NCBI GenBank assembly: GCA_947625225.1
Contig: CANQNQ010000004.1
Location: 64,443 to 128,442, forward strand
Source: an uncultured Clostridia bacterium
Lineage (GTDB): Bacteria; Bacillota; Clostridia; Christensenellales; CAG-917
Direction: 5' to 3'
Length of the DNA stretch: 64,000 bases
Below, in pieces: positions 35,701 to 53,758 of this stretch. The position numbers and the translations under genes are program-made. Every line of letters starts with the position of its first letter. Position 1 is the first letter of the stretch. The notes below the pieces were generated by a model, which saw only the letters and a list, made by a program, of their open reading frames with translations, searched no databases and was not told the origin of the DNA.

Positions 35701-38700
35701 CCTTGTTGATGCTTATTGAAACCTTGCCGTTCTCTATGCCGAGGTTGACGGTCAAGCCGCCTGCCGCGCCCGCTTCGCCGGAAGAGCTTGTGCCGTCCGC
35801 AGAACCTATGGAATCGGCGGCGCTGAAGCCATCTGCCGCGCTCATTGCGGCGGAGGCAGTCGTTGCGCTCTGATAAGGCGACACGCCAAGCAGACCGCTG
35901 ATGCCCTGGAACTTGATCTTGCCCAAGCCGAGACCGGTGAGGTCGATGAATATCGCGTCGTTGTACGCGTGTGTGCTGTCAAACTTGCCGGCGGAGGACT
36001 CGTACGTCAAATTGCCGTTGTTCAATCTGGAAGAGCCGAGATAGTAGATCTTGGCGATCTCCTTGTTGACGGGGCTGCCCATGCTGAGCGTCAATTGCAG
36101 GTCGCTGAACAATATGCCGCCAATGCCGTAGGTGATCAGCGCCATGATGTTGAGGTCCGCCTGCAGGTCGACCTTCAACGTGACTGCGCCGTTGGGCAGC
36201 ACCAGGTTGAAGTCCGCCATGACAAAGCCGTATTTGCCGTCTGCACTCTCAAGATAAGCGCCGGAAGCGGCGTCGAGGTTATACCTCTTGTCGCCCGCTC
36301 TCCTCAGCTCGTCTTCGGACATATTTTCGACAAGTTTGTATGTGCCAAACAGGGACGAGCCTGCCAGAGTGTCCTTCAACAGGTTGGTCACCCAGCCCGC
36401 GAAGCTGTTGTCGTATTTCGCGTCTTTGTTTGTCAAGCCCGAGGCGTTGAGGGTCAGCTCGACGCCCATCTGTATGCCGATGGTGGGCAGCGTCATGCCG
36501 TCCTCGCCAAACAGCTTGTCAACGCTGACTCCGTCGCCGCCGATGAGGCTTGCTATGTCAAGGGTGCCCAGATTCACCCAGGTGCCGTCATCAAAGTCTA
36601 TCTTGCCGGTGTTTTCGCCCGCGGCGAAGAAGTCTGCCGAGGCGTAATTCTTCCTCAGCATGGTCACGCCGGGGATGTCCAAGCCGACGTACAGCGCGTC
36701 GCTGAGCCTCAGCGTCAAGCCCATGGCGGTCTTTTTGCCGGAAGCGTCCAGCTTGAGCATAATGTCGCCGATGTCGGGCAACAGATCCTGCTGCCACACG
36801 TCGGGATCCTCGCCGCGCAGCTGCATCACCTTGCTGTAGATGGCGTTGATGATGTCCGCGTTGAGCTGCAGCAATATCTTCTGCGGGTTGACAAGGATCA
36901 TCAGATAGGCATACTCCTTCATCAGCTGCTTCACCGTATCGATATCGCCTGCCGCCGCCAATGCGTCAACGGAACTTGTCGCCGCGGCGTCGGTGCCCAT
37001 CAGGTCGCCAAGCAGACCGCTGAGCATGCTGCCCAACGGACCTGTGCTGCCGCCCAGCTTGATGCCGCCCAGCTTCAACTTGGCGGTGGGGCCGAGGATG
37101 CCGCTGAGGTCTATGCCAACGTTGCCATCCTTGTCAAGATAGATGCCCAGCACCACACCGGTGCCGTCGCCGTTGACAGAATGCTTAAGCAAGTCGATGC
37201 GCGCCGCGATATTGAAGTCCTTGAGGTCAAGATATGCCTTGATGTCAAGGGTCAGGAAGGTGCCTTCCTTCTTGCCCAATGCGTTGGTTATGTTGATGTT
37301 GAAGGCGCTGCCCTTGATGGCGCTGCCTGCGCCGCCGCCCACAAGACCGAGGATCATGTCAAGCAATTGACCAAGCTCGATGGTGGTGTCGTCGGCGGTG
37401 GGATCGCCGTACAGCGACACGTTGATGGAGGTGGACAGCTCGACCTTGAGGTCGTTGATGCCCACGTAGGGATCCTTATACTCCTCGCCGTTGAGGTCCT
37501 TAAGTCTGGTACCCTTATCGTCAACGACATAGCCCTGCTCATCGCGCAGCACGCTCTGATACATCACAACGTTCTTGTCGACGGAGAAGTCCTTGTTGAC
37601 CGCCACGCCAAGGTCGGTGATGTGCACGCCAAAGCCGAAGTCGCCCAGCTTGAGGTATGCGCCGTCCGCAGCCTCTTCAAACGCGCCCGTTGCGGCGTTG
37701 AGGGTGTAGGCAGTGCCCTTCCAATTGGGATAAGCATAGCCGATCAGCGCGTACTCGTCGTTCATCACCAGCACGTACTTGGCGTCCTCCCTGGTGCAGC
37801 TTGTATCCGTGCACAGCACGTATTCGCCGCCCTCGAGGTGATAGTGCGCCATACCGGCAGGCAGATCATCGCCCTTGTTCCTCTGGCCATTCTCGCCGTA
37901 CATGTCGTTGTACTCTTTAAAGGTGAGGTAGTAGTCCGTGCCCATCTGGAAGCCCATGTTAAGGTCGATGGACGGAGCCTCGCCGTACAGGTTGATGGTC
38001 AAGCCCGAAGTGTCCGCACCCATGGATGTGAACAGCTTGGGCATATATTGCATGACGCCCGCGATGATCTCGTTGTCGGTGTCGGAGAACATCGCGATGA
38101 GGTCGCCAAGCAGCGTCTCGTTGAGGCCGACTGTGATAAAGTCGTTTGCGACAAGCAGTCTGCCTACGATCAGGTTGATTATGTCAAATATGTTTTCGGG
38201 CAGGATACCCGTGTCGACGTCCTCATCCGCGGAGGTGTACGCCTCGCTGGCGCCGCCAACGCCAAGCCCGCTGAGCAGACCCGCAATGTCTATGCCCTCA
38301 GCCTTTGCGTAGGAGAAGAAGTCGCCAAAGCCCACGATCTCCGCGATGTCCGTCACGTCCATCATCAGGTTAAGCTTGCCGGTGGTCTCGTCAAACTCCA
38401 GCCAGATGTACGCGGTGGCGGTATCGTCGCCGTGGAAGTTGGTGTCGTAGGTCACCTCAAGGTAGACCTTGGTGCCCTTAAGCGCGGCAATGATGTCGCG
38501 ATCCTCTGCGGGAGCAGTCAGCTGCGCGATGAGGTTGTTGATGGGCAGATACGCCTTGAGGTCGATGTCAAAGCCTATGGTGGACTCAAACGGCTCTGCG
38601 CCCTCCCCGCCTTCCTTGCCTTCTTCGTACAGAGATGTGACCAGCATGTACACAAAGTCCTCTATCTCCGCGCCGAAGAATTGGGTCATCTGATGCGTCC

Positions 38701-41700
38701 AGTTGATGACGTCCGTCAGCCTCATCTCGATTGCGAGGGACAGGTCGAGCTCCACAGTGTTGAGGCCGCCCAGCATTTCGGTGATCTCAAATTCCTTGGC
38801 GCCGCTGATGATGTCCTCAAGGTCAAGCGACAACGCCTGCGTGTAGTTTGCAAAGTCGTCCACCTTCTTGTACGCGATCACTTCGGGGCCGACAAGGTCC
38901 GCCTCGTTCATATCGGTGTAGCCGTTGCCGTTGGTGTCAAGCGGCAGATATTGCTCGCCGTCGATCGTTACGGGAGTTGCATAATTCGCCACGATCGGGT
39001 CATGAACTGTCGTCTTGTAAGTCTCGTTGTTGATGTCGGCAACCTTGACATATTGCAGATTGCCAACGCCCGTGAAGCCTTGCAGTTGCAGCTTGTTGAC
39101 CTCGATATAGCGGTTATTGTTGTTGCGGTCAAGCACCATCAGGTTGTTGGTGAAGTTGACAAAGCCGTCCTTGTTCACTATATCGCGATATACGCTGGTG
39201 GTCAGGTTGAGACCCGGCACGTCTTTAAGCTCGGTGTTGACGCCGTTGTACACGGTGTACAGATTTGCGTCATAGCCGGTAAGATGCTCCGAACCGAACG
39301 CGTAACGTCCGCCGATGCCGTCCTTGACCTCCACCATCACGGAGCCGGACTTGGAGTATCTCATCTCGGGAGCGTCTGTATACTGGCTGTAACGCGTGTC
39401 GATGTAAGCTTCCTCGCCGATGAGGCTCATCACGTTGTCCTCGTATTTGTACGCGCCTTCCGCGTCGACGTAGTACTCCTGGTCGCCGACCTTGGTCAGC
39501 TCGACATAGTCCTTTCCGTCGCCGTTCTTGCCGAAGTTGCCGTTTTCAAGGTCGTGATAGAAGTTGGCGTAGTAGAAGATGTAGTCGTAACCCGTCTGCT
39601 TCGTCTTGATATCCGCCTCGTCGCCAAACGCGATGTAGGAGGACTTGCCCATCTCGCCGTTGAGACCCTCGATCTGTATACCCATGTCGAGGATGGGCTT
39701 TGTGCCGTCCTCGTTGAGCAGCAGACCGCCCAGAGTCAACGCATAGGGATAGAGATCAAGCTTGAGGTACGCCTGCAGGTTGGGCAGCAGGTCGCTTATG
39801 GAGGAGCCTGCCAGCGACAGGTCGGGCAACAGCGAGTTGAATATCGCGCCGATGAAGCCCGCCGTGATGTCCACGCCTATCGCGCCCGTAAATATGTTGA
39901 TAAACAGACCTATATCCGTGCGGCCGTGACCCTCTTTGTACACACTGTACGGGTCGAAGTCCGCCGCGGGGATAGCCTCCTGCGTGGAGACAAGGTCGTT
40001 GTCAAGCACGCCGTCCAGCACGCCGTTGAGGATGTCCTCCAAGGAGTAGTCGCTCATATCCACGGCTATCTTGGCGTCCTTGCCAAGCAGCCACTCGAGG
40101 TCGAGATATATCGCGGACTTGCCGGTGTGCTCGTCGTGCGAGTAGTAGATGCCCAGCATGTGCGTCAGCGAGCCGTCCAGCAGCGCGCCTTCATAGTTGC
40201 CGCTTGCCCTGTCGTCCGCCGTGACGTAGCCGCCGGTAGCCAGCTTGTCGTTCTGCTCCATCCATGCGTCGATGGCGACGTCAAGGTCGCGCAGGAAGAA
40301 CCTGAGCGGCACAATGGAGATCTCAAAGCTGAGGTTGATCTTTATCTCGAAGTACAGCCTGAGCGTGGCATCGTCCGTCACCTGGAAGTTGCCCTCCAGC
40401 TGACCGAACACCGTGCCGAGCACGTCGCCAAGCGCCTCGTTGATGCCAAGGCGTGCGTCAAGGCCGCTGTTTGCCAGCACGTACAGCTGGTTGTTTGCCT
40501 TCAGCGCCTTTATTTCAGACTCATCGGTGACTGCCTGATAGCCGCCGTGATACTTCTTGTACGCGATGCCCTTAAGCGTCTCATCGGGCACTTCGCCGCC
40601 TTCGTGGAGCTGCTTGTAGAACTCGTTGTACGTTGCATAGTCAAGATATATCTTGCCCGCGTTGACAAACATGCTGCCCCTCAGCGTGATAGCCACGAAG
40701 TTCAGCTTGCCGACGGACAGATAATCGTCGTACATGTAATCGTTGTATTGCTCATCCGTAAAGTCGGGCTTTTGGATGACGCTTTCCTGCATGACGCGCA
40801 CGGAATACTCGCCCTCGCTATACTCGGTGCCGTCCGCTTTGGTCTCGCCGACCGCCAACTGACGCTTGGACTTGGCATTGTTGTCGTATCTCTTGTAGAT
40901 GTAAGGACGCCTCAGCTGCACAAATGCGGCGCTGTCCTCCGTCCTGCAGTCCACATAGTAGACGGTGTGTTTGTTGACCATCTCGGTCAGGAAGTCGGGG
41001 AATGTCTTCGCGCCATCCGTAACTTTGACGTACTGACCGCCCTCATCCTGTATGTACAAGGTGTCCGCGTTTATCGGGAAGTACTTGTTGTCATTCTCGA
41101 TATATCTGGGGTCTTTAAGATACTTTGTGGCGTCGAAACTGTCTGCCGTATAGTAGTCCTCAATGTACGCGCCCATACCGTCGGAAGCCTTGTCAACGCT
41201 GTCGAACACGTCCTCGACGACGTCCACAAAGCGCGCATCGGCGGGATAGTCCAGTTCCTGCGCCTTCGGGTCGTTTCCAAGGACATATTTGTACGGGATG
41301 GCGCCCAGCTGCGGGAAGTTGAGGCTGAGTCCTATGGAGTGATTCCACAGATACAGGTTGAGCTTGAGCAGCGGGTTGCGGGCTTCGAGTTCCTCAGCCA
41401 AATACAGACCCTCTGCCTCGGTATAATTGCCATCTGCCGCCTGCACGTAGAGTTTGGGCATCTCAATGCCGATTGTTTCATACTCCTTGTCCTTCTCGGC
41501 CGCGTCGATCTGCGCTCTGTTGGCGTCGGTGTATGCAACGTAGGCGTCACCCACCTTGATGTAAGTGACGGTGGCGGTCACGTCGTAATAGGCATATGGG
41601 TTGCCGTTTGCGTCCTTTTCGCCCTCCGACATCTTGGTGTCATAATTCGCCTTGTCGATCTCGCTCATGTCTGCCTTGAGCGCCATGCCGCCGTCGCTGT

Positions 41701-44700: not shown

Positions 44701-47700
44701 TTACAAACGTGTGCAGATTGTGCGCGTCGTCGTTGACGTAGATGGTGGTCGGGATGTACTCGGTCTGAGTAAGTCCGCCTTCGGCGCCTTCCACGGCCTT
44801 TTCCATGCCAAAGTACATGCCGTAGTTGCGCAGCGCCAGGTGGGTCTTGCCGTCCGCGCCGCCGCCGGCGACGTCTATGCCCAGATACAGATCGGAGGAG
44901 GCGGTGGTGTCCTTGCCCTTGGTGACAAATTGCACCTTGTTGTACACCGCGTTGTCCAACACAAAGTAGTCGCCGCTTTCTATGCCGGTGACAACATCGC
45001 CCTTGTATTCAACCGCCGTATAGTCTTCTTCTCCATCCTTCTGCCACAGCGTGGTGCTGTCCACGGGATAGAAGCTGTAGTTGCCGTTTGCGCCGATCGC
45101 GACATAATAGTCGCTCATATCGCCGTCGTCGATATATTCTTTGAATGTTTCTTCTTCGTAATACTTATATATTTCTTGTCTGAACAGATCTTCCTTCTTA
45201 AACTTATTGAACAGGTCGGGATCGGTCGTTTCAAGTTCCGCAAGGGGCTTGTACTCGTCCGCGCCTATCTCGAAGTCAACGGACAGCTCCATGTTTTCAA
45301 ACACATCCGCGATGTCGCCCAGGCCGTCCACAAAGCTGCCAAGCACGATAGCGATCAGAGCCTTGGTCAGCTGGATCTTGATGGCTTCGTCGGAGTACAC
45401 CAGCGCGATGAGGGCGTTGCGGGTCTCCACATCGATGGGATCCGTTATCTCGTCCGCCGCCGCGGAGGCTTCTTCGCCGAACACTCCGGACAGACCTTCC
45501 CTGTAAATGCGGCGGGCATATGCCTCGAAATCGTCCACGCGCGCATACTGCTCCGCTGAGGTCGCGATGCCCGTGCCGTCGATGTAAAGCGAACCTGCAT
45601 TGAGATAAATGCCCGCAAGCACGATGGGCTCGCCGTTGTCGTATCTGGCAAATCTGCCCTGCTCGTTGGTCTTGACCAACTGGATGGCAAGCTCCAGAGT
45701 GCTGAGGTCGGTGCCCTCGCTGTTGACAAAGTTCTTTATCTTGGTCAGGAAGTCCGCGTCGGACGCCTCAAACAGTTTGGCGAGGTCGACGTGCGCAAGG
45801 TCGATGTTGGCGGCTATCTTCAAGCCGATGCCGCTGTTGTACTGACCCGCGGTCTGCAGTTGTATCATCAGATCGCCCAGCAGGTTGGACAGCATGCCCA
45901 TGCTGCCAATGTCGTAGGTGGCGACGTCGGCGCTGTTGAAGTACAGCATACCGCTTGCCGTCAGCGACACGTACTGCTCGCCCTCGTTGTCGCCCTTGTC
46001 GGCGCCGTTTGCAAGCGCAAGTATGGTGTCGAGGTACTGCTCGAAGTCGATGTAGTTCATCTGCGCGTCGGGATCGAGCAGGCTGCCCGCGCCGGGATCC
46101 TCAAATCCTACGCCGACGTCAAGGCCGAGCGTCATCTCGGTGGCGTACGGGACGATCTTGTCCTCGGAAGGAGCGTTGAAGTTGGCAAACGCCAGCAGCA
46201 TCTTCAAAGTGAGCGCGCCGTTGGACGTGAAGCCCTCAAAGTGCTTGTTGTCGGCAAGCGTCACATACAGGCCGCTTGCGTAATCGCCGTCCTCCACAAG
46301 TTCGAGGTTCTCCGCGGGGATGTTGAGAGTCGCGCCAAACACGTTCTTGAAAGTCTCGCTGGTGAACATCTTGTAGAACATATTGCTGTTGAACAGCAGG
46401 TTGATGGCCTCTATCCTCCACAGCGCTTTGTTGGTAGTCCACGTCCTGGACTGCAGCGCGATGGACTTGACCAAGGTGTTGAGTATCATCTGCAACGTGT
46501 TGGTCACGCCCGAAGAGCCCTCGGGTGCGGCGGCAAGCGCTTCCTCCGCGCTGCCGGACGCGGAATTGATGAGGTCCATTATCCTCTGCAGGCTCATCTT
46601 CACCTGAGGCCCGCCTATGCCGGACAGATCCGCATAGATCACTCTGTCGATGAGGTAGAAGTCCACAAACGACCTGTCGCTCGGTTGCACAGCGGTTTCG
46701 TAGGTGAAGTCAAGGCTGACGCGCGCTTCGAGAGCGCCGAGTATGGTGTTGGTATCAAACGTCGGTATGGAGTCGAAGTCAAGCGTGCTGAGGTCGCCAA
46801 GACCCAGCTTATCGAGGTCGAGCTTGCCCGTGATGTGCAGCATCAGACCGTCGTAAATGGCATGTCCAAACAGCAGGTCAAGTCCAAGCTGGTCAAGCAA
46901 TTGCTTGAGCGGGAATGTGGACTTGTCCGCGCTGAGGATGCCGTCGTTGTTGTTGAAGTGGTAGCTGGGCAGCATAGTGCCCGCGATGCCGTCAAGCGGC
47001 AGCAGACCAAACACGAAGTCAAGCACCGCGTTGAGGTCGAAGGGAGTGCGCACGTACTGTCCGCCCTTGTCCTGCACGAAGCGGCCGTCGGAGACCCTGC
47101 GCATATACCTCTCGCTCTCGTCGTAGGCGCTCAACTCCTGCGCGTCCGCAATGTAACGGTAGGTCGCGCCGGTGGAGTACTCGATGAACAGCTTGAGGTC
47201 GATGGTGACTACTCTCACCTCGCTTCTGTCCACAAAGTGGTCGACGTATTCGTTTTCGTCCACGCGGGTGTATGTTGTTCCGTCGAAACTTTTCTTAAGA
47301 ATGTATTGCTCGGGAGCGCCGTCGCCCGCGGCAGTCTCTTTGACCAGATAGTACACGTCTCTGTCGCCCGCGTCGCCCGTCAGCACGTCCTTCTGAGAGA
47401 TCTTTTGGCTCACTTCGCTTTCAAGTTCATCATACAGAGGATCGCTGTTGCCGGTGATGACGTCGATGTTGTCGATGCCCAGCGACAGGTCGATGAGGTT
47501 GCTGCCAAGGTCCAGCCTTGCCATGACGCCCGTTTCGTCTATCTGCAACAGAGCGTTGAGGATAAGGTCGAGATCCAGCGTATTAAGCAGGTTGTCAAAG
47601 TTGAAGTTGACGGACGGGATCTGCGTGAGCACAGCCGCGATTATGCCGGCGATGACTGCCTGACCTATGGTCAGCTGCAGGCTGCCCTGTCCAAGCTCGA

Positions 47701-50700
47701 TTATAGCGGCAAGGTCCGTATCCGTGATATCCTCGGGATCTGCCGCCGCCATGGCTTCCGCTCCGCCCCCCGCGTCGGGACCGGGCATGGGCGTATCGCC
47801 GCCGATGGCGCTGTTGGCGGTGCCCAACAACTCCTTTACTTTGTCGCCGATCAGTTTGGAGAGACCGACGTTTTCAAGATATATCGCCTCATCGGACAGT
47901 ACGCCGAGATCGACATATATTGATGAACCAAATATATAAATAGCAATTATATTACCTAAATCACCTTCGGTAAGCTCTATCATCAACCTGGTGCGGCTGG
48001 GATCGTCCAGCGCAAGGTTGCCGCCCACCCTGAGGTCGAGCGCATAGAAGTTGTCCTGTGTGATGTCTATGCCAAGTTTGGTCGCAAATTCCACGCCGAA
48101 TGCGTCAAGCAGATTATGAAGTTTCAGCTCCTCGGACTGCGCCTTCAGCGTGAGGTCAAGCGAGAGCTGCGCGTTGAGCGAAATGCTGTCCAGCTTGTCA
48201 AGAGAAGTGTAGATGTCGCGGTTGAAGTCGAGGGGCAGTATCTGCGCCTCTTTGCCGACGCCAAGCGCTATCTTGCTGAGGGTCACGCCGATGGAGAGCG
48301 GCTGTATGCCAACGCTGAAGTTTATCCTGTAATCGCTTGCATTGGACTTCCACAGCAGTTGCAGATAGCTGTTTGTGGTGTCAAGCGCGGGCATCTGATC
48401 GGGAGTGAGGCTCTTGCCCGTGATCATATTGACCAACGCCGTCACAAGACCCGTGGCGAAGTTGATCTTGAGACCTTCCTCGCCAAGCGCTATGCGGCTG
48501 ATCAGCTGAGGCAGGAGCTTCAGCAGGGTGTCCACTGTGCTGCCGCCGCTTGCGCCGCTCTGCGGATCGTCTGCGGAGTATGCCTCCGCGCTGCCGCCCG
48601 CCGCGGGATCCGACGTGGAGTTGCCTCCGCCTATGCTCTTGATGAGGTCGCCGAGGTTGAAGTTGCTTATCGCAAGATGGAAGCCGTCGGACAGGTCGAT
48701 ATACATCGTGCTGGAAGGCACGTCGTTTACCTCGCCGTTGTACACAAGCCTCACCATCAACAAAGCGTGCTCGCGCCTTGCCGCGTCGTCTTCAAGACCC
48801 ATTATGGTCTCGATGTCCTCGTTGTACAGCTCTATGGCGATGCCGGAGTGGGACAGTATGTAGTCAATGTCGAACAGGTCGCCTATGGCGTAGATCTGCT
48901 CGCCCTCCTTGACGCTTGCAGCGTTGACTTTGACGTACATATCGCCGTCAAGCACATATACGTCGCCGTCCGTCTTGTCGACGGGCACGAAGCTTCTGCC
49001 GTCGGGCAGGTACTTCTTGACGTACAGTTTTGCGGTCGTATCGGGTTGAGTGGTGCCGTCCGTGTTGCTTATGACGGGACGTTGTACAACGCCGCCCGCG
49101 TCACGCTGCGCCGCCTCATAAAGCTGCGCGCCGTCGCTGAGCCAATACAGCTCCGCATAACGCGCCGAGACTGCCGCGAGGTCGGAGTCGTCCACGGGGA
49201 CAAACCTTGCGTTGTCGCGGATATCCACGGTGACGTTGGGGTTGAAGCGCGCGTTGAGCGCAATGCGGAAGCCGATGGCCTGCTCCACGGAGCTGGGCAC
49301 CGTGTATTGCATCACCAATCTCTGGATGAAGTTCTTTATTTCAACGTCTTTGACGTCTACGAGCGCGTTGATCCAATCGCCTATCTGCCAATCGGGATAC
49401 ACGCCGTTTTCGGCGCCAAAGGATATCGTGCCCTGCAACTCTGCCGATACAGTGGGCATGATGAGGTCGCCCGACGCATTGAACAGGTTGAGGTCGGTGT
49501 AAGATTCGACAAGCGAATTCTCATCGAAGTAGTCGTGGATCTTGTGTGGCTTGCCGCTTCTCGTGACGAAGCAGTCGGTCAGTGCGCCAACAGTGATTTT
49601 GGTGTTGCCAATGCTCAGCTTCAGCGAGCCTGTGGACTCGCCGTAGCTGTTTTTGACTGCGCCTTCAAGCACAATGCCGTCCTCTGTGCCCTTCTTGAGC
49701 GCGTCGAATGCGACGTCAAGGTACAGCTCGAAGTCCTGCATGGATATGCCGACCAGCTTGTACAGCGCGTCGACAATGCCTTCCATCAGCTCTATGCGCA
49801 GATGCTCGGAGGACAGCGTAACAAGCACGTTGATAAGCACGTCTATCGCCGCGGCGTCATCGCCGGGAGCCGCCGCCATCGCTTCTACGCCCTCAGCGGC
49901 CTGTCCGTTGAGGTTGACGACGGTGTCCTTTGCGACAAGACCCATGATGAGGCCCATCAGGTCGATGTCGGTCGCAAATTGATTGAAGCCGAAGTTGCTA
50001 AGGTCCGCATACAACATGCCGTCCACGTAGTACAGACCTATAAGCAGGCTCTTTTCGCCCCACTTGTTGCCGATAAGCTCGATGACAAATGCGGATTGAT
50101 TGTATGTGGTAAGGATATCCGTCTTGCCGACAAGATATTGGACGACGGGCGCAAGGTCAAGTCTGCCCGAAATGCGCAACTCATATCCAAAGTCTATGGC
50201 GTCGTCAAACACTATATCCAGATCCTGGAGATCGACGCCGCCCTGATCCGCCTTGAACTCTATGCCCAGATTGAGGTCGAGCGAGACGAGAGGATTGTTG
50301 TAAATGTCAACGTATGTATCCGCGTCTTCGGGCAGGTAGTTGCTCACGGTGTCGTGCAGACCCGCGTCAATGCCCTCTATTGCAAGGTTGAGGTCCATCA
50401 GATCGCCAAGCTTCACGCCGAAGCCCACTTGCACGCCGGGCAGGTTCAGACCCTTGGAGAAGTCAAGCCACAGCTGAGCGGAGGATTCGCCGCTTGTGAT
50501 CATGGGGTTGAGCTGTATGCCGCCAAGGTTGCCGACCAGCTCCTGCAATGCGCCGAATGTGAGCGCAAGTTTGATGACGTTCTGTCCAAACGAAACTTCG
50601 CTCAACATGCCCGCGACGATGCTGAGGATGCTGTCAATGGACATGCCGCCGCTCTCTTCGGGAGCAGCCGCATATGCCTCCTCTGCGCTGTCTTCGCCGC

Positions 50701-53347
50701 CGACGGCGCTTGCAAGCTGAGGAACAACGTCCCTGAGGTCGATCTTTACCTTGTCCAGCTTAAGCGCGGAAAGTTGCGCGTCAACGTACACAAATCCGTC
50801 CTGCAGATACACAGCAAGCAACGGTTTGTTTGTGCCCGCCTCGGACGGTTTGTTTGTGCCCGCCTCGGACGGTTTGTTTGTGCCCGCCTCTTTAAGTTCA
50901 ATGGCTGCCGAAGAGGTAAGCAGCGCGGAGATATTAAATCCGCTGCCCGCCACAAGACCGGACAGGTCGATGTCCGCGTCAATGTTCATCTCAATGCCGG
51001 TATCTATGCGCCCAAGCTCAAGCAACAACGCCACCACGATCTTGTCGTAGGCGGTGCCGATGTTTGCATTGTGCAAGATGTCTTCGATCGGGATGTCCAC
51101 TCCGCCCAGCGCCGCTTCCAGCGTTGAGATGTCCAGCTTGATGGAAGTGCCCGCGGTGAGATGGAACAGGTCTGCGTTGAGCACGCCGTCCCTGGTGATG
51201 GACAGATATTTTGCCGCATTGTCCTCTACTTCCTTAAACTTCTGCTTCCATATATCCTTGTTGGAAAGCGAACCGAAGGTTAGCTCGCCGCCCAGGTACA
51301 GCGTGGACACCAGCGGGTTTTCGGGATCGCCAAGCTGCAGGTTGACAAGCTCCAACGTCTTGGACTCGCCCACGCCGTTGTTCTTGTAGACCAATGCCAC
51401 GGGATCGTCGCCGTTGACGATGGGTATCTTTGCGCCGTCAAGGTCGCTGCCGGGGGTGAACACCATGCCGAAGATGGCGTTGAGTATGGTCTCGGTCAGC
51501 TCGACTTTGAGACCGGTGATGTTGAATATGTCTCCGTTTTTGTACAGAGTGGTGCTGTCAAGTATCATCCTGACAAGGGTCAGCACGTCGACGGTGCCGT
51601 CTCCCTCGTCCGCGGCGATGGCGTCGTGCGGAATGATTATGTCCGCGTTGCCAACCAGCCTGTCATACTCGGCGGCGGAAGCGCCCAAGCCGTTTATGGC
51701 GCCCACAACGGTGTCGAACAGGTCGGTGACCGCGCCTTTGAGCAGCTCGTTGATGTTGATGTCCGTCACCTTGAAGTAGGTGTTGCTGTCGCCAAGCAGA
51801 CCGCTTGCGTCAATGTACACGCAGTTGGTCTCGCCCGAATAGTACGCGCCAACGCGCGGCTTTGTGCCGTCGCCCGTGGCAAGCTCCGCCATAATGCGGG
51901 TCTTGGAGTAATCCTTGGTGTTTATCTCGCCCTGCACCGTCAGCGTGACGGTGATGGTCTGTCCAAGAGAAGTGATCGCCGTGTTGAAGAGGGGCTGCAG
52001 GCTTCCCAACATGTCGGGATCGAGGTTGTTTTGCAAAATATTTGTGAACAGCGAACCGAACGAACCCAATGCGTCGTTTATGGTAAACTGCTTGTTTGCA
52101 AAGTCTATTTCGAGGTTTACGCTGCCGTCGATGGTCAGCAGCGAGTAGTTTTCGTCCATCTCCTTTATCTTTTGATAGAAGGACACGGCGTTGCCTTCCT
52201 CGTCAAGCTCCATGCGGGAGCCGAGGAAATCCACAAGTTTAAGGTCGGGCGTGCCGACAAATCTTGCCTTGGACTCGCCCAGCATTATGCCGATCTCCTC
52301 CTGGAATCTGCCGTACTTTTCCTCGAGATCGGGCAGACCGTATGAATTGAGGTTGAGACCGATGTCCGTGTACATCTGCTGCAATTTGCCGTCCTGGATG
52401 TCCGCGGTGATGTTGAGCGCAATGCCGCTGAGGCTGGCAAGTTTGCCAAGGTCGAGGCCGATGACGTCCTCCACAAGGCCGATGATGTCCTCGGGAATGA
52501 CGCCCTGCAACAGAGGAAGAATCGTTGCGACAAGCGACAAGTCCACGGGAAGCTCTATAACGGTGTGACCGTTGCCGTAATCATAGTAGTGGCTGGAGGA
52601 ATTTGAAAGCAGCAGACCGACGATCAATTGCTCTATCGTCATGTCGATAAGGTCGATCTGCATATTGGGCAAAAGACCCTTGATGAGGTCGTTGAGGTTG
52701 TAGTTGAACAACTTGTTGTACACGATGTCGGAGATGTTGAGTTGGTGGAAAGCGTTGGCAAAAGCGCCCACAAACGAGGGTACGTCGAGGTTGTCCGTCC
52801 ACAAGACGTGCACGCCTTCGTCGCGCTTGATGCCTCTCAGATCCGCAACAAGCTTGCCCTCGAAGTAGTAGATGCCCAAAACCAATTGACCCCGACCCGC
52901 ACTTGCCATGGCGGAGGCGGAATCCTTGTCGATGATGCCGCCCACAAAGTCGTCGGGCACAAACTTCCTTATCTCTATCAACAGCTGGTTTTCTTCAGCG
53001 TCGGCGTCGCCCATGGTGTCGAGGTGACCCGCAAATCTCAGCACGGACAAGCTCTCATAAGCGGACTTTGAAAAGCCCAACACAAATGAGGTGTCAAAGT
53101 TGAGGTATCTGGCGTCCTTCTCCTCGGCGGAGGCGGCCATCGCCGCGTCCTTCAGCATTATCCACGCCTGCTGGGAGTCAATGCGCGACTGGTCCTCAAC
53201 GTCGGTGTTGGGGCCTCCGCCGCTCTGTCCCGGAATGACAGGGGGTGCGCTGGGATTGTTATCCGTTGGATTACATGCGACCAAAGCGACGGTAAGCACC
53301 ATCACCAGGATAAGCATCAACACAACTGCGATTTTTTGTCTTCTCAT
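26750..53347 (-). CDS. Giant predicted lipoprotein, 8,865 aa, novel modular architecture (putative surface fibril/adhesin; function unknown)
   Basis: The reading frame is open for 26.6 kb without interruption. The start is taken as ATG 53347, with GGAGG 7 nt upstream. The N-terminus MRRQKIAVVLMLILVMVLTVALVAC-NPTDNN is a lipoprotein signal with an L-V-A-C lipobox. Module-end and linker motifs recur at the protein level without nucleotide repetition, which argues for real coding. The gene has its own promoter and terminator. Confidence 0.9.
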   Translation of the reverse strand: MRRQKIAVVLMLILVMVLTVALVACNPTDNNPSAPPVIPGQSGGGPNTDVEDQSRIDSQQAWIMLKDAAMAASAEEKDARYLNFDTSFVLGFSKSAYESLSVLRFAGHLDTMGDADAEENQLLIEIRKFVPDDFVGGIIDKDSASAMASAGRGQLVLGIYYFEGKLVADLRGIKRDEGVHVLWTDNLDVPSFVGAFANAFHQLNISDIVYNKLFNYNLNDLIKGLLPNMQIDLIDMTIEQLIVGLLLSNSSSHYYDYGNGHTVIELPVDLSLVATILPLLQGVIPEDIIGLVEDVIGLDLGKLASLSGIALNITADIQDGKLQQMYTDIGLNLNSYGLPDLEEKYGRFQEEIGIMLGESKARFVGTPDLKLVDFLGSRMELDEEGNAVSFYQKIKEMDENYSLLTIDGSVNLEIDFANKQFTINDALGSFGSLFTNILQNNLDPDMLGSLQPLFNTAITSLGQTITVTLTVQGEINTKDYSKTRIMAELATGDGTKPRVGAYYSGETNCVYIDASGLLGDSNTYFKVTDININELLKGAVTDLFDTVVGAINGLGASAAEYDRLVGNADIIIPHDAIAADEGDGTVDVLTLVRMILDSTTLYKNGDIFNITGLKVELTETILNAIFGMVFTPGSDLDGAKIPIVNGDDPVALVYKNNGVGESKTLELVNLQLGDPENPLVSTLYLGGELTFGSLSNKDIWKQKFKEVEDNAAKYLSITRDGVLNADLFHLTAGTSIKLDISTLEAALGGVDIPIEDILHNANIGTAYDKIVVALLLELGRIDTGIEMNIDADIDLSGLVAGSGFNISALLTSSAAIELKEAGTNKPSEAGTNKPSEAGTNKPLLAVYLQDGFVYVDAQLSALKLDKVKIDLRDVVPQLASAVGGEDSAEEAYAAAPEESGGMSIDSILSIVAGMLSEVSFGQNVIKLALTFGALQELVGNLGGIQLNPMITSGESSAQLWLDFSKGLNLPGVQVGFGVKLGDLMDLNLAIEGIDAGLHDTVSNYLPEDADTYVDIYNNPLVSLDLNLGIEFKADQGGVDLQDLDIVFDDAIDFGYELRISGRLDLAPVVQYLVGKTDILTTYNQSAFVIELIGNKWGEKSLLIGLYYVDGMLYADLSNFGFNQFATDIDLMGLIMGLVAKDTVVNLNGQAAEGVEAMAAAPGDDAAAIDVLINVLVTLSSEHLRIELMEGIVDALYKLVGISMQDFELYLDVAFDALKKGTEDGIVLEGAVKNSYGESTGSLKLSIGNTKITVGALTDCFVTRSGKPHKIHDYFDENSLVESYTDLNLFNASGDLIMPTVSAELQGTISFGAENGVYPDWQIGDWINALVDVKDVEIKNFIQRLVMQYTVPSSVEQAIGFRIALNARFNPNVTVDIRDNARFVPVDDSDLAAVSARYAELYWLSDGAQLYEAAQRDAGGVVQRPVISNTDGTTQPDTTAKLYVKKYLPDGRSFVPVDKTDGDVYVLDGDMYVKVNAASVKEGEQIYAIGDLFDIDYILSHSGIAIELYNEDIETIMGLEDDAARREHALLMVRLVYNGEVNDVPSSTMYIDLSDGFHLAISNFNLGDLIKSIGGGNSTSDPAAGGSAEAYSADDPQSGASGGSTVDTLLKLLPQLISRIALGEEGLKINFATGLVTALVNMITGKSLTPDQMPALDTTNSYLQLLWKSNASDYRINFSVGIQPLSIGVTLSKIALGVGKEAQILPLDFNRDIYTSLDKLDSISLNAQLSLDLTLKAQSEELKLHNLLDAFGVEFATKLGIDITQDNFYALDLRVGGNLALDDPSRTRLMIELTEGDLGNIIAIYIFGSSIYVDLGVLSDEAIYLENVGLSKLIGDKVKELLGTANSAIGGDTPMPGPDAGGGAEAMAAADPEDITDTDLAAIIELGQGSLQLTIGQAVIAGIIAAVLTQIPSVNFNFDNLLNTLDLDLILNALLQIDETGVMARLDLGSNLIDLSLGIDNIDVITGNSDPLYDELESEVSQKISQKDVLTGDAGDRDVYYLVKETAAGDGAPEQYILKKSFDGTTYTRVDENEYVDHFVDRSEVRVVTIDLKLFIEYSTGATYRYIADAQELSAYDESERYMRRVSDGRFVQDKGGQYVRTPFDLNAVLDFVFGLLPLDGIAGTMLPSYHFNNNDGILSADKSTFPLKQLLDQLGLDLLFGHAIYDGLMLHITGKLDLDKLGLGDLSTLDFDSIPTFDTNTILGALEARVSLDFTYETAVQPSDRSFVDFYLIDRVIYADLSGIGGPQVKMSLQRIMDLINSASGSAEEALAAAPEGSSGVTNTLQMILNTLVKSIALQSRTWTTNKALWRIEAINLLFNSNMFYKMFTSETFKNVFGATLNIPAENLELVEDGDYASGLYVTLADNKHFEGFTSNGALTLKMLLAFANFNAPSEDKIVPYATEMTLGLDVGVGFEDPGAGSLLDPDAQMNYIDFEQYLDTILALANGADKGDNEGEQYVSLTASGMLYFNSADVATYDIGSMGMLSNLLGDLMIQLQTAGQYNSGIGLKIAANIDLAHVDLAKLFEASDADFLTKIKNFVNSEGTDLSTLELAIQLVKTNEQGRFARYDNGEPIVLAGIYLNAGSLYIDGTGIATSAEQYARVDDFEAYARRIYREGLSGVFGEEASAAADEITDPIDVETRNALIALVYSDEAIKIQLTKALIAIVLGSFVDGLGDIADVFENMELSVDFEIGADEYKPLAELETTDPDLFNKFKKEDLFRQEIYKYYEEETFKEYIDDGDMSDYYVAIGANGNYSFYPVDSTTLWQKDGEEDYTAVEYKGDVVTGIESGDYFVLDNAVYNKVQFVTKGKDTTASSDLYLGIDVAGGGADGKTHLALRNYGMYFGMEKAVEGAEGGLTQTEYIPTTIYVNDDAHNLHTFVSYNGSYSQAKLEDRLFGYVREPEADLSNDKDYLYYRTVRSYTDLSEFSLGVALQMGTLSLGLRIGAIDIGIGGGGDQLLPDYIRDGVAHSYTTSDGKEHGYIRDEYNALETKPEIEEVPVTKLSDSIITLEFSVELNLDITSGALDFGMIFAGILGELAGVRLDVPNTAIGYSSAHFRLDFALTLDMHSFSDLELKLELVQVTSTGFDLLWAGIYFFNGGLYFDLSNVFGIPKMSMSDINVETVLRSLFDMIRGVGSGSSSGDEALASANAAVGGMGAGNNNIDYDNPDLALLLFLNKNDLALVIGDVLFELVLEYLPDDLLGFPIRDLFYEEINGNLSVELNTEDDIDLSLSATLGLPGDRYYSTATMTKEQNKPGELTADLLAVYNDLTDITTNTRYYVFVEDTAGTYIMGGNGRYIRPLMPNDVTDGQTLYKKYRLSDKDGAFEVYEVLSNSAMEELAASPIELEGEKVYNIFYCVDGAAANITTVSDYGKHDMNLQLGLAIKDLGVRFSNSRTSVINSEDLDGYTGFGDLDHVTLNEIIDITTDFKPGDDNSVDLSSVFELLGFDLDPESVLISALGDDGGDVERSIRLRLDVDVQLLGLANYARTHLITVENQDGEMGFLDVVELLRAVFDGQINILDHVTELLNYIDLSLILETKGSGDEDYHTLVGIYLSSGSYKKLEADNLNEDSADYVKPADRYDHYYKAGFGNYKYVVNEGVGSYVILTAEEKSQYIEAVDGAYKQDENGNYVEIGEGEEYEGTRYAVNNAYVAPADRYTYDSVNCYQNDNGNYMHTEGGLYVDLTYFNLPSLEVPSNMVNDLLGSLGGTSAGGAAEAMAAADTQADAAIDLPLLSGENATIADYIRGLVYGFSITSKYISILLKPDYINTILTLIMGDDALQFDASEFVNYPSLYLYTDMSKFRYVDEDKLLNSVVEAYDELYKQYKESVSDDEARVNALRDMLRAPGYVELQSLLNASRQRFSVTTYTKDTDKGMYYVDSDGGMALKADMSEIDKANYDTKMSEGEKDANGNPYAYYDVTATVTYIKVGDAYVAYTDANRAQIDAAEKDKEYETIGIEMPKLYVQAADGNYTEAEGLYLAEELEARNPLLKLNLYLWNHSIGLSLNFPQLGAIPYKYVLGNDPKAQELDYPADARFVDVVEDVFDSVDKASDGMGAYIEDYYTADSFDATKYLKDPRYIENDNKYFPINADTLYIQDEGGQYVKVTDGAKTFPDFLTEMVNKHTVYYVDCRTEDSAAFVQLRRPYIYKRYDNNAKSKRQLAVGETKADGTEYSEGEYSVRVMQESVIQKPDFTDEQYNDYMYDDYLSVGKLNFVAITLRGSMFVNAGKIYLDYATYNEFYKQLHEGGEVPDETLKGIAYKKYHGGYQAVTDESEIKALKANNQLYVLANSGLDARLGINEALGDVLGTVFGQLEGNFQVTDDATLRLYFEIKINLSFEISIVPLRFFLRDLDVAIDAWMEQNDKLATGGYVTADDRASGNYEGALLDGSLTHMLGIYYSHDEHTGKSAIYLDLEWLLGKDAKIAVDMSDYSLEDILNGVLDGVLDNDLVSTQEAIPAADFDPYSVYKEGHGRTDIGLFINIFTGAIGVDITAGFIGAIFNSLLPDLSLAGSSISDLLPNLQAYLKLDLYPYALTLGGLLLNEDGTKPILDMGIQIEGLNGEMGKSSYIAFGDEADIKTKQTGYDYIFYYANFYHDLENGNFGKNGDGKDYVELTKVGDQEYYVDAEGAYKYEDNVMSLIGEEAYIDTRYSQYTDAPEMRYSKSGSVMVEVKDGIGGRYAFGSEHLTGYDANLYTVYNGVNTELKDVPGLNLTTSVYRDIVNKDGFVNFTNNLMVLDRNNNNRYIEVNKLQLQGFTGVGNLQYVKVADINNETYKTTVHDPIVANYATPVTIDGEQYLPLDTNGNGYTDMNEADLVGPEVIAYKKVDDFANYTQALSLDLEDIISGAKEFEITEMLGGLNTVELDLSLAIEMRLTDVINWTHQMTQFFGAEIEDFVYMLVTSLYEEGKEGGEGAEPFESTIGFDIDLKAYLPINNLIAQLTAPAEDRDIIAALKGTKVYLEVTYDTNFHGDDTATAYIWLEFDETTGKLNLMMDVTDIAEIVGFGDFFSYAKAEGIDIAGLLSGLGVGGASEAYTSADEDVDTGILPENIFDIINLIVGRLLVANDFITVGLNETLLGDLIAMFSDTDNEIIAGVMQYMPKLFTSMGADTSGLTINLYGEAPSIDLNMGFQMGTDYYLTFKEYNDMYGENGQRNKGDDLPAGMAHYHLEGGEYVLCTDTSCTREDAKYVLVMNDEYALIGYAYPNWKGTAYTLNAATGAFEEAADGAYLKLGDFGFGVHITDLGVAVNKDFSVDKNVVMYQSVLRDEQGYVVDDKGTRLKDLNGEEYKDPYVGINDLKVELSTSINVSLYGDPTADDTTIELGQLLDMILGLVGGGAGSAIKGSAFNINITNALGKKEGTFLTLDIKAYLDLKDFNIAARIDLLKHSVNGDGTGVVLGIYLDKDGNVGIDLSGILGPTAKLKLGGIKLGGSTGPLGSMLSGLLGDLMGTDAAATSSVDALAAAGDIDTVKQLMKEYAYLMILVNPQKILLQLNADIINAIYSKVMQLRGEDPDVWQQDLLPDIGDIMLKLDASGKKTAMGLTLRLSDALYVGLDIPGVTMLRKNYASADFFAAGENTGKIDFDDGTWVNLGTLDIASLIGGDGVSVDKLFGEDGMTLPTIGIQMGVELTLNASGLTNKDAKYDNSFAGWVTNLLKDTLAGSSLFGTYKLVENMSEDELRRAGDKRYNLDAASGAYLESADGKYGFVMADFNLVLPNGAVTLKVDLQADLNIMALITYGIGGILFSDLQLTLSMGSPVNKEIAKIYYLGSSRLNNGNLTYESSAGKFDSTHAYNDAIFIDLTGLGLGKIKFQGISGLLGVSPYQSATTASAAMSAADGFSAADSIGSADGTSSSGEAGAAGGLTVNLGIENGKVSISINKGLLNSVFGMLGLALPFELPIEQIDLSLLTGDSGISQIAVNARLDNEGTSLSATINPININFGSGILKTKDLIEEVKVGYAGLTLSNTAGTSNLIQNILDGIGLYAKIEIQNKVWSAVATNPRDESTRSFYTETKTLLRGQRVYHDGSMTKDNPGYILKLDLEATRGTAGSDKGGGWTTNGGSTVVSVPVLFGGNNLWIGNQTNNLIVGLGGNPVGDAIMQAIGNGAILPMDLGSMMGSGKLFDFVSGSDGDNDQYAVPAAGNSGVTGWDSGKTSYSYPLQLTNLIKSVELDLFNSNGYWPYYSSMKSSSMHNNGMGNISVKVELNKDAYNELILMVDVLLLNMINGKSHSNPDGVYAFDVSKVDTDTSKDATTYSGAAYTFKKHNPDGSTSDVTVSGHLDAVFDELDYLLQHDATTEQKVALIEPLARSIPAAFIKFILEGVNVTAVGDLWKGNVLSSLVTDTIGNLSRLISNILPLPFASGDISPSLNIYIDVDPQKSDYGITDGGITMHPGIQAIEIFVNGKKNGVGTSMLYNNAATTTVSSFKNRTVTSTGASNYDGTNKTNKTTTSLNNAWDYFMLSLTPYGNESSSVQDPMLGFLDSDSANLTDTSGVTVPQAIYITNPATGAGYLSANGQANSNIGTFDRLTDNYFYTNPTKFPRVANVVYGKKDGGNTQNSFLAGSTAAPGTSIVWDASTIDYTPSNSSEPRIGGFVYGYALNTVMYAIPVYITNNYQYMNSVKEAVAGNQSKAIQLDMKQDSSTYNTKLPDEVVVSLRNDTSNADVRFGTYLEDAEGNMAYAILITAGTGINNNWEKATATKGTDSKGASVDSGHTFHSSVMSTVTYNNVEYNLYPAYIAGLAKNSADGSYITQDIGGVTYYFILKDQFVDKKVPAGTFKWNLDDFAFNWSGAGSRGDQGENLTVGFTYQWGFATPVSGKLGIPVKNYYIASLTGLSGNGITLDGNSALKLGSTQGKDGYEFTLSIDAINMTSDISDLVAYLNKLTTAKGIYGNSLNGDTFDDLDVKFDTTELEKALAAIKTGDGKYDYYKGLDVTVPVTLGASKFKVEYTSTNADGSHTTGFKGSESIGSDNMIGQTVMIRIVVNSYTFASAETNYTFDPYQYKEVKFDNIVGDTFTADAAHKPTLRFRVRNADGSYVTREISYDANMEEQSADAALTFDTKTVYILNDKGEYVDAHKSNTVAGGTTFMLDEDAMISYEGYAYAKEHPLYIKVDLGTDYSGKQTFYVPITVKSFTQRGVATMDILHADTFNPLWYKSDAYKSLASVELTDENGNTVTHTMYPDWSTVVYYTNSNFNIEKPVQDISGQSLVYAKVRMTATEDGLGHKYVGTDPEKHRVYEAQTFSLRISVEQQNEFKSVRFFNGGDIYATTKGGTDAAATNALTAQMQDVSNYTATVYAQTHTIDGVAFGIDPLVYAAHPEYYFKNNNGRPYWGNFYVDEKGAIKTDGNMLLGTAVLVEPFPIALNTSIYDTKLYKLVDGKYVEVGDGDTPEYKLNKNTNQYEPYTDGDKGTPYIAYIQSWNETLGKVAIGGKQITLNESLGGHPLPEFKVNVPDYNVTAVKSVTGGTFTLNSGDLTADGMLTLTHDVYTAWSMPDAATVTTAQGNGDIAAKILWSNSNALTSSENVQQDEDGKYFITRTYQLGMGENNAVKTAQLTAKLYLENYGVDVQWSLNNQGSEYTIFGAKPQWASTATVMIGGETKSTTVPVLWQDSRTLPTLAEINAGKMTRSYVLPIGKNGTQRVKGSAEITINSAAAFKDSHGADFTGDMHAGTLGYTLKAEYFFDGLPTQGTVNGNTVKFSWTVKSGQYTTKGGELDMNLTVSGNDLTLSNLPVHVILEKAEITEVLNNTKDTIWAYDVYGGEFGNMFANGSTLDVKINGKTNKSLKVNYNLAEVDSKLGGSLQAFYDNVANYFGKVFTLKATFDFTGANWLPEDEKEFEFNMYVMDRTFIAFENARYRSLIIDPNYTANVDGYDNPLNVITSSFGGNFIANGTDTVSVEVDWSPINAMIASKTSNTSFMLETVFAIADAKGYYVKNATGKYVPYTSGNVQRYYLVKQSINVPVTILNRDILDSEVVFSNAVKYLYTDTSRRDITTQTVVGFEGGVREDGRYIDITYSRTTHLPTTFTFYNRYSYAGPKDATLTPANMPLRLRLKFANNSSDVYYITYGEKLEDGSIVNGVPTIDEIENLTGTNRFNVNVHVWSKNPEEAGAFEVMDPFTVEFVIRASALTMYNSDIAYDDMSYGDYKYSYDPYNTQSMVASGMFKDSMTYYVDGQFISAESWWNEGRSANFGITSYSATWEKRHTNYLVYTRDGSTYTEGIRNNQQVYYTYNESNRTYSKYTGDVEDGYAAADGRTLYIFIYVTTLKMNLTWDDSTADYSYRGGVTRVKATATSTSYGHNCAATFDVPVLVNSAVATDVKMPDDYSNEFWNATLNAFVVDPLGNNDIRERTGTYTGQRFSLADDGVSYVKDKLGTFGIDGDTYFELDEAQLGTYTYLPKTLKLTLENGKTVDVDVTWDLSNVVINYKGSATPYIARAYVDNTKYNHGVDIGSQRFTFDVYVADRSVKRPNDGSFRSLDAYAKYGSDGTEATATEAIDPYDDQALVNPTMPDSIELYFNPASFSRSTDGSISQGTGMNDSRTFTVGAADGNRLEWNYGKYNPTWKGGVTYVTAILTSANGVVQEYDVPLLVQRKVVTSLSYKPDPTNTSTTTWNIKTKEGVEAYEQYTSEVDGTYTVSPKNARTLSLPSAYTVYFKSWNPKYNYSTKQADFKSAGVGTDSNIAYNYLTTSMPASAEWTAKNGKWDWSGKTGNGTIQIGTQQTITVKMDLDTSVSATVSGGVVSGVTVNSSYGQNELPSQIGDVPVAWVGRVTVSKLSGGSPVTFPVILSAASGNISLPTFGSRNVVYTLCCVYCPLVDVNGAVVLTKSADANHGTSAVKAGDKIPYGLGWVHPASGQEVTVTING
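26753..35755 (-). other. C-terminal ~3,000-aa region of the giant protein: Thr/Asn/Tyr/Gly-rich, with recurring Ig-like W...GG...VPV units
   Basis: At least 10 degenerate units match the pattern [VIL]xW(D/S)xS...(K/R)GG...V.A.....Q..(D)VP(V/L)xV. Examples are VDVTWDLSNVVINYKGSATPYIARAYV...FTFDVYVADRSV, MNLTWDDSTADYSYRGGVTRVKATA...FDVPVLVNSAVA and RLEWNYGKYNPTWKGGVTYVTAILTS...YDVPLLVQRKVV. The protein ends ...CCVYCPLVDVNG...EVTVTING with no LPXTG. Confidence 0.55.
35756..52900 (-). repeat. Protein-level array of about 13 large degenerate modules (about 260-745 aa each) in the giant protein
   Basis: Each module ends with a motif like ..(L)(L/V)xGIY(L/Y)xxGxLYxDLSxxG.. followed 25-60 aa later by a low-complexity linker with the core [AS]E[AE]x[AS][AS]A[DP]. 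Linker cores lie at about 51590-51700, 50657-50695, 49862-49909, 48569-48589, 47726-47761, 46505-46558, 45449-45475, 43886-43915, 42148-42225, 39950-39992, 38212-38270, 36936-37003 and 35756-35870. After each linker comes an amphipathic ..ID.LL.LL..L...I.L.....L.I.L...L..A.....-type segment. Confidence 0.7.
50821..50890 (-). repeat. Perfect 24-bp tandem repeat, 2.9 copies, in frame (EAGTNKPS x3)
   Basis: ACGGTTTGTTTGTGCCCGCCTCGG is repeated at 50821, 50845 and 50869 on the plus-strand text. It encodes KEAGTNKPSEAGTNKPSEAGTNKPLLAVYLQDGFVYVD. Confidence 0.95.
53273..53347 (-). other. Lipoprotein signal peptide and lipobox of the giant protein
   Basis: It has an RRQK n-region, a 17-residue hydrophobic core and an LVAC lipobox. 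The Cys25 codon is at 53275..53273, followed by a Pro/Gly/Asn-rich tether (NPTDNNPSAPPVIPGQSGGGPN). Confidence 0.8.
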
Positions 53348-53417
53348 ACATCTTCCTCCAAACCCACACATACGCCTTAACGTGTACGCAACGTACGCAT
53401 AGATTTTATACGGTAGT

Positions 53418-53446
53418 ATTATACTCCCGAAAATCCCCTTTGTCAA
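53418..53446 (-). promoter_or_regulatory. Perfect-consensus sigma-A promoter of the giant gene (TTGACA-17-TATAAT)
   Basis: On the minus strand, -35 TTGACA is at 53446..53441 and -10 TATAAT at 53423..53418, with an exact 17-nt spacer. This predicts a 5' UTR of about 64 nt. The ORF-track TTG start coincides with the -35 element. Confidence 0.65.
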
Positions 53447-53619: not shown

Positions 53620-53758
53620 ATTATCTGCGCGTCGGCACGCCGCGCCCGTCCTCTTTTTGACGTTTGAAACGCGCTTCCCGCCGCGCCGCTTCCGGCGTAA
53701 AAACTCTTAATAAATTTGCCGTATTGCGGCATAAAGCCGCAAAACAAACTTATTTTTA

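Follow-up and report, generated by a model that had tools for sequence, protein, structure and literature searches.

The giant lipoprotein gene and its motif copies

The stretch of uncultured Clostridia DNA analysed here (64,000 nucleotides, called the window throughout) carries on its reverse strand a gene for a giant surface lipoprotein (26750..53446), and the subject of this work is a seven-residue motif that recurs in the linkers between the modules of that protein. The gene is chromosomal and 26.7 kb long, and in the list of open reading frames (ORFs) and in translation it forms a single ORF of 8,898 codons. The N-terminal ~5,900 residues are organised in 13 large modules, while the C-terminal ~3,000 residues differ in make-up and are immunoglobulin-like (Ig-like). 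The listed TTG start (window 53345-53446) places 33 extra residues ahead of a probable ATG and is probably not used, since full-length homologues start at the equivalent Met with the same ...LVACNP lipobox. From this probable true start (ATG, residue 34, at 53345-53347) the translation reads as a lipoprotein signal peptide (53272..53347, reverse strand), MRRQKIAVVLMLILVMVLTVALVA, followed by the lipobox Cys at residue 58 (LVA↓C) and then by NP.

All 12 motif peptides quoted in an earlier, sequence-only reading of the window are present in the translation of 26750-53446 (reverse strand), and their seven-residue cores span residues 923 to 5866 (window 35831-50680). In order along the protein, and all on the reverse strand, the copies identified in the translation and by a position matrix begin with EAYAAAP (residues 923-929, 50660..50680) and EAMAAAP (residues 1188-1194, 49865..49885). 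Three sites follow that fall in one structural model described below, namely EAYSADD (residues 1621-1627, 48566..48586), EAMAAAD (residues 1897-1903, 47738..47758) and EALAAAP (residues 2302-2308, 46523..46543). Next come EASAAAD (residues 2659-2665, 45452..45472; translation and matrix) and EALASAN (residues 3179-3185, 43892..43912), the latter at the centre of a second model. The translation and the matrix also give EAMAAAD (residues 3752-3758, 42173..42193), EAIPAAD (residues 4490-4496, 39959..39979), EAYTSAD (residues 5068-5074, 38225..38245) and DALAAAG (residues 5494-5500, 36947..36967). The last linker (residues 5866-5884, 35795..35851) holds three degenerate copies in succession, AAMSAAD, then GFSAAD and SIGSAD, with matrix scores of 21.9, 7.8 and 8.5, so that two of them are weaker. 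A 13th copy, DAIAADE (residues 608-614, 51605..51625, reverse strand), was found at a junction for which the sequence-only reading had given no motif; the junction model places this 13th junction at residues 538-658, and the peptide fits [ED]-A-x-[TAS]-A-[AD]-[DE].

The position matrix was trained on the same 12 sites and its scores are therefore partly circular: they run from 18.3 to 30.4 bits for the 12 sites, against 8.7 for the best non-overlapping other site in 8,898 residues. In 200 shuffles of the whole protein the best site reached 18.18, compared to 18.26 for the lowest of the 12. The junction profile runs from the module-end strands over the linker to the initial strands of the module that follows. 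It detects 13 junctions in this protein but not the end of the first module (GIYYFEGKLVADL, around residue 200). Linker boundaries were taken as the flank columns of the junction alignment, it being noted that the junction model was itself built with the motif inside. With these boundaries, 10 of the 12 own linkers match [ED]A.[TAS][ATS][ADS], whereas 500 composition-preserving shuffles per linker gave a mean of 0.6 and a maximum of 4, so the motif is not a by-product of the Ala- and Glu-rich composition. The linker flanks have the kind of composition that the sequence-only reading described, consisting to 79% of G/S/A/D/E/P/T/N; also, 15% of the residues are acidic and 1% basic. Synonymous codons vary freely among the 12 copies, and selection thus acts on the peptide, not on a DNA or RNA element. 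For the same reason a repeat maintained at the DNA or RNA level was dropped, as was gene conversion, since in addition to the varying codons the flanks of paralogous junctions have no BLAST-detectable similarity.

Junction layout and predicted disorder

Each junction is laid out as a module-end hairpin (G-I-Y...L-Y-V-D-L-S), then an amphipathic helix, then an acidic linker of ~35 residues with much Gly, Ser and Ala and hardly any Lys/Arg. The motif, with the core [E/D]-A-hydrophobic-[A/T/S]-A-[A/D]-[D/E], lies in the middle of this linker. The tether from the helix to the motif has a median length of 11 residues (1-28) and that from the motif to the next module a median of 18 (8-42). As these lengths vary, the motif is not a fixed structural spacer and instead floats in a flexible loop.

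Two AlphaFold models were used to look at this region. In the first, of 731 residues, which covers two whole modules and three motif sites, the mean predicted local distance difference test score (pLDDT) is 56 and all three sites are coil at 29-37 (~30 for EAYSADD at residue 1621, 29-37 for EAMAAAD at residue 1897 and ~34 for EALAAAP at residue 2302). The second, centred on one junction (residues 3080-3290, window 43577-44209) and based on a 68-sequence alignment, has a mean pLDDT of 75.5, with 87-94 in the module-end strands and 73-80 in the strands of the next module; the helix after the module end occupies positions 77-92. Positions 93-127 of this model are coil, the sole internal stretch below 50 is 97-115, and the chain's pLDDT minimum falls on EALASAN (positions 100-106, block mean 41), with neither a helix nor a local rise in confidence. 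Such a rise is often seen in segments that fold on binding. By these predictions the motif would be disordered and not an element of the fold.

As a side observation, an in-frame perfect tandem repeat, EAGTNKPS, is present about three times at window 50822-50890 (residues 853-875), in the loop that precedes the end strand of the second module. It is possibly an insertion that arose recently or varies in length.

The protein family and its modules

An exhaustive HMMER search with residues 1150-2349 as query returned 29 cluster representatives, 16 of them below 1e-30. The homologues include giants of 7,286-7,924 residues with the same lipobox start, and the few named entries read 'hypothetical protein [Clostridia bacterium]' (MDD4839585.1, MDE6059947.1). 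Relatives share a collinear order of modules. A word-indexed homologue search with residues 880-2400 gave no match, and a scan of a genome collection with the single giant protein as query found no relative. Pfam and NCBIfam gave no family for the first 5,000 residues, the weak Big_4 hit being confined to the C-terminal part. A profile search of the modules against the PDB gave 0 hits, and Foldseek of the two AlphaFold models against the PDB gave best E values of 0.23 and 0.035, none at or below 0.001, with ApoB100 and hot-dog folds at the top. A literature search gave nothing relevant on giant Clostridia lipoproteins, and a full-text search with six motif peptides only one unrelated paper. 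The family and its module are undescribed, and the family is small and uncharacterised.

In two of the homologous loci the giant gene is interrupted. A single in-frame TAG breaks the gene of homologue P0021 inside a linker (locus L006, 8331-8440), ~15 codons ahead of the motif variant SAVASDE, and beyond the TAG the reading frame leads into the following called ORF. Possible explanations are a sequencing error, a pseudogene, read-through, or a gene naturally divided at the linker. In a relative of low guanine and cytosine content (locus L007, 5426-19689) gene calling splits the giant gene into two ORFs that overlap (2,087 and >6,730 residues), with the break within a module, not a linker. This split is probably a frameshift or an assembly error.

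Conservation of the motif across relatives

The junction profile found 116 junctions (E < 1e-3) in the 29 homologues, at ~30% identity. Over these the family consensus is [E54/D24]-A89-x(V/L/T)-[T37/A33/S13]-A68-[A51/D21]-[D49/E16/G11], the numbers being percentages. The motif columns carry 1.4-2.4 bits each (0.6 at the variable third position) and form the sole information-rich island of the linker: 5 of the 9 columns before the motif and 5 of the 7 after it lie below 0.5 bits, and no flanking column exceeds 0.91. The Ala of position 2, conserved at 89%, is level with the module-end Asp (89%) and close to the two module-end Tyr residues (96% and 87%). An independent MAFFT alignment of 68 junctions has only Y51, D60 and the motif Ala in columns of 90% or more and gives the consensus E-A-x-x-A-A-D. 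At the junction orthologous to that of residue 1897, 14 relatives align as E-A-x-T-A-x-D with variable flanks. The motif is degraded to approximately E-A-x-x-T-x-[DE] in the most distant giants, P0012 and P0018. As regards the check on homologous linkers that the sequence-only reading had proposed, its outcome does not refute the motif, as 57 of 113 linkers of the relatives match the degenerate pattern used above, against 4.8 expected. The motif, judged from these alignments, is a character of the family that is strongest in the present protein.

Linkers of P0006, P0007 and P0015 (for example P0006 'TAVTAAECTTHTDADGDGVCDVCGAAVTADGEND') also contain small Cys-containing inserts of the form D-x-[DN]-x-D-G-x-C-D-x-C-G, which adjoin the motif or separate two motif copies, with several in succession in one P0015 linker. 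By their sequence they look like metal- or calcium-binding mini-modules, and their occurrence suggests that the linkers are exposed, insertion-tolerant loops.

Likeness of the motif copies within and between proteins

When the linker was masked, the BLAST score of the flanks averaged 103 bits for orthologous junctions and 0.7 bits for paralogous junctions. The motif itself does not follow this order, paralogues within a protein being at least as alike (13.2 as BLOSUM sum; 3.26 of 7 residues identical) than orthologues (11.9; 2.89), the permutation p value being 0.005. Each protein has a motif flavour of its own, such as EA[YML]AAA[DP] in the present protein, EAVTAA[DE] in P0006 and [DE]ALAADD in P0003. 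In the present protein motif paralogues are closer than orthologues in 8 of 8 comparisons, and the signal is strong here, in P0002 and in P0006 and absent where the motif is degenerate. Since paralogues win in only 39 of 72 protein pairs overall, with the proteins of degenerate motifs pulling the opposite way, we regard the within-protein flavour as suggestive. The robust point in these comparisons is the absence of co-variation between the motif and the neighbouring module; whatever reads the motif would be the same at all junctions.

Genomic setting and the C-terminal third

The genes around the giant gene are housekeeping genes (secA, comFC-like, recD2, metK, rpoC, rpoB, ispDF, pyrG). The RpoB of the window is closest, at 77% identity, to the RpoB of an uncultured Clostridia genome of human gut origin, and the next-best matches (61-69%) are nearly all to Clostridia assemblies, including Christensenellaceae. 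A divergent neighbour on the forward strand (53716..54687) encodes a membrane acyltransferase (HGSNAT_cat / Acyl_transf_3 in Pfam), and a copy of this HGSNAT-type gene, 41% identical, lies near the giant gene in the distant homologue locus L005 (E 1e-56 in a tblastn search of the window with the L005 protein). Directly upstream of the giant gene in L005 (3920-7490) and L007 (2152-5306) we found a GH20 hexosaminidase, a protein of 274-277 residues and a PIG-L deacetylase, and a PIG-L deacetylase is also directly upstream of the giant gene in L004 (350-1144). This conserved neighbourhood in distant relatives points to a tie with glycans that contain N-acetylglucosamine (GlcNAc).

The C-terminal third of the giant protein (residues ~5,900-8,898, window 26750-35750) is rich in Thr, Asn and Tyr and of Ig-like make-up, with one weak Big_4 hit. 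In this region the linker motif, a wall-sorting signal and a C-terminal anchor are all absent. It is presumably the distal, ligand-facing end.

Interpretation of the linker motif

The sequence-only reading had proposed that a conserved linear motif embedded in disordered linkers marks a recognition site and not a fold element. This general idea is upheld by conservation over paralogous junctions and over relatives of ~30% identity, by a motif predicted to be unstructured between confident flanks, and by the lack of co-variation with the neighbouring module. Its best explanation, which we hold tentatively and as somewhat short of probable, is a short linear motif on a disordered linker that is read by one outside factor, most probably an endopeptidase; both the existence of this reader and its being a protease are what we infer. 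The host is taken to be a single-membrane bacterium; on that assumption, with Sec export and the lipid anchor at Cys58, the product would be displayed outside the cell and its linkers would be exposed loops. All motif copies would be read in extended conformation by one shared factor outside the chain, the likeliest of the possible readers being a secreted or wall-associated endopeptidase that would nick the chain between modules and leave pieces that are released or stay non-covalently associated. Such cleavage may give the polyprotein of ~13 pieces that the sequence-only reading had suggested. The endopeptidase is ranked first since small residues over an unstructured stretch of 6-7 residues are typical of substrates held extended in an enzyme cleft. 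The motif has traits that fit such reading in general: it is short and disordered, mostly of small residues, with acidic ends and one hydrophobic position, and under a common constraint.

Several points weigh against reading by an outside enzyme. All support for a reader or for cleavage comes from sequence and prediction, and no peptidase gene was seen in the 64-kb window or in 10-20 kb around four homologous genes. About half of the homologue linkers miss the strict pattern, paralogues beat orthologues in little more than half of the protein pairs as given above, and the lineage bias in composition was only partly controlled. AlphaFold disorder at 18-68 sequences is also compatible with folding on contact elsewhere in a chain of 8,900 residues, and the collinear module order is no less compatible with an uncut rod than with a cut one. 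There is a more specific version of the outside-reader proposal, which is rather unlikely to hold as a whole, in which the linkers would be a lineage-specific address code and a co-evolving extracellular enzyme would nick the chain once per module to give ~14 non-covalently assembled surface pieces. The cut-site consensus would then be [E/D]-A-x-[A/T/S]-A-[A/D]-[D/E], in a chromosomal surface polyprotein of a gut Clostridia bacterium.

The main rival, itself unlikely, is that the motif is a structural element within the chain, which on contact with module-end or module-start elements would become a short helix or strand and latch or stiffen each junction, or cap edge strands, without any outside reader. 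Since the elements beside the linker are conserved in all paralogous junctions (Y 96%, Y 87%, D 89%), such a generic docking site inside the chain would also explain the same motif at every junction. A2, A5 and A6 together with the acidic ends could, on a reading of the logo, form the small-residue face of a two-turn helix, and the collinear modules suggest an intact rod. Against docking, the flanks are confidently predicted, yet the motif between them has the lowest pLDDT and no secondary structure, the same being seen at the three sites of the larger model. Also, both tethers vary widely in length, and the V and T that relatives often have at positions 3-4 form helices poorly. In another reading, thirteen weak copies could act as a multivalent 'sticker' that binds a wall polymer, a cation or the same protein and so bundles or anchors rods in the envelope, which fits the regular spacing of identical short motifs on flexible acidic spacers and their single shared constraint. 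We consider this improbable, as a motif so small and mostly of Ala offers little binding energy.

The sequence-only reading had also named glycosylation, cross-linking and signal peptidase cleavage. There is little chance that the motif serves as a cross-linking point or undergoes some covalent change besides cleavage, such as O-glycosylation at the Thr/Ser of position 4 or 5. Position 4 is Thr or Ser in 50% of the homologue sites, sugar-related genes stand beside the giant gene, with PIG-L deacetylase directly upstream in three homologue loci and GH20 in two, and an HGSNAT-type acyltransferase adjoins the giant gene here and lies near that of L005. Yet in 7 of the 12 own cores Ser, Thr, Lys, Gln and Cys are all absent, which leaves no conserved acceptor; O-glycosylation in particular becomes unlikely as the common function, as these 7 lack both Ser and Thr. 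The best conserved residues are Ala and Glu/Asp, with Ala at position 4 in 33% of the homologue sites, and the neighbouring genes resemble GlcNAc catabolism, not glycosyltransferases, the 274-277-residue neighbour having no signal peptide. Of all readings, cleavage by type I signal peptidase after A-x-A in each linker, to give ~13 pieces after export, is the least likely, and signal peptidase I is a very unlikely reader of the motif. Of the 12 own sites, 10 do obey the -3/-1 rule in the register A-x-A↓A (cut after position 4). In the homologues this register passes in only 52 of 106 sites and the other registers in at most 65 of 106 (61%). There is no upstream hydrophobic core, for the best 10-residue hydropathy in the 35 residues upstream averages 1.33 (maximum 2.49) compared to 3.67 for the signal peptide of the protein itself, and the same 35 residues hold 4-5 acidic residues. 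The distance from helix to motif (1-28 residues) is not fixed either. Pro directly follows A-A-A in 3 of the 12 own sites, and Pro at +1 blocks cleavage by signal peptidase I.

Further candidates were tried and rejected. Acyl-shift autoproteolysis (SEA, GPS or CwpV type, N-O/N-S) does not fit, as there is no conserved Ser/Thr/Cys nucleophile; most own cores consist only of Glu, Ala, one hydrophobic residue and Asp or Pro. A restart of translocation by internal pseudo-signal peptides was dropped, since the helix ahead of the motif is amphipathic and acidic. A-E-x-A-A resembles the stem peptide of peptidoglycan, and E-E-x-x-A-A the methylation sites of chemoreceptors; both ideas were likewise dropped for what we take to be the wrong spacing, chirality or compartment.

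Comparison with known systems

If an outside endopeptidase does read the motif, some known systems provide analogies. The P97/P102 adhesins of Mycoplasma hyopneumoniae have an endoproteolytic motif, S/T-X-F↓X-D/E, in disordered stretches, and the fragments remain on the cell surface, the responsible protease being unknown (PMC3322551). The present motif resembles it in being short, in lying in the predicted disordered part of a large surface protein, in the acidic residue just downstream and in the Firmicutes/Mollicutes lineage. It differs in having no conserved Phe at P1 and in recurring, conserved across the family, at module junctions. Cleavage is proven for P97/P102, whereas what is known of the giant lipoprotein derives from sequence and prediction alone. 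LapG, a cysteine protease of the BTLCP type, cuts giant adhesins of the LapA kind at a di-alanine site of the type T-A-A-G (PMC10990149). The likeness lies in a giant adhesin with a small-residue T/A-A-A core, which in the LapA case is recognised by a dedicated protease that thereby controls surface display; many homologue sites read T-A-A-D or T-A-A-G. Compared with the LapG core [T/A/P]-A-A-[G/V], positions 4-6 of the motif are [T37/A33/S13]-A68-A51, and position 7 (D49/E16/G11) is mostly Asp or Glu. The one site of LapA lies in its N-terminal retention module, and LapA uses type 1 secretion and is cleaved in the periplasm of double-membrane bacteria, in contrast to 13 sites in the inter-module linkers of a Sec/lipobox lipoprotein of a Clostridia host. 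The window and four homologue loci showed no BTLCP gene.

The secreted Pro-Pro endopeptidases PPEP-1 and PPEP-2 (C. difficile; Paenibacillus alvei) cut short recurring motifs in flexible regions of surface proteins and release, for example, CD2831 and CD3246 of C. difficile. As in the present case, these are Firmicutes systems with a short motif that recurs in flexible surface-protein regions. But the PPEP motifs (VNP↓PVP, PLP↓PVP) are Pro-rich and near a sortase anchor, with the protease gene nearby, and none of these features is found in the giant lipoprotein. Ebh of S. aureus is a giant repetitive surface protein of a Gram-positive bacterium and is similar as a megadalton-scale, membrane-anchored stalk of many repeated modules, except that the modules here match no described domain. 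We know of no conserved linker motif in giant surface proteins of the Ebh type. P97/P102, LapA and the PPEP systems would thus serve as precedents and not as memberships, as sequence, secretion route or site number differs in each.

Significance

A regulatory language of short linear motifs in disordered regions is well known from eukaryotes, and few such motifs have been defined in bacteria. Here one motif occurs 13 times in a single protein and is kept across a so far unannotated family of lipoproteins of 5,000-9,000 residues in uncultured gut Clostridia. It provides a testable handle on the maturation, display or shedding of these giant surface proteins. Should it prove to be a cut site, the motif would establish a new protease-substrate pair and a surface polyprotein in bacteria; otherwise it still surpasses every other feature of the stalk in conservation, the module-end strands excepted.

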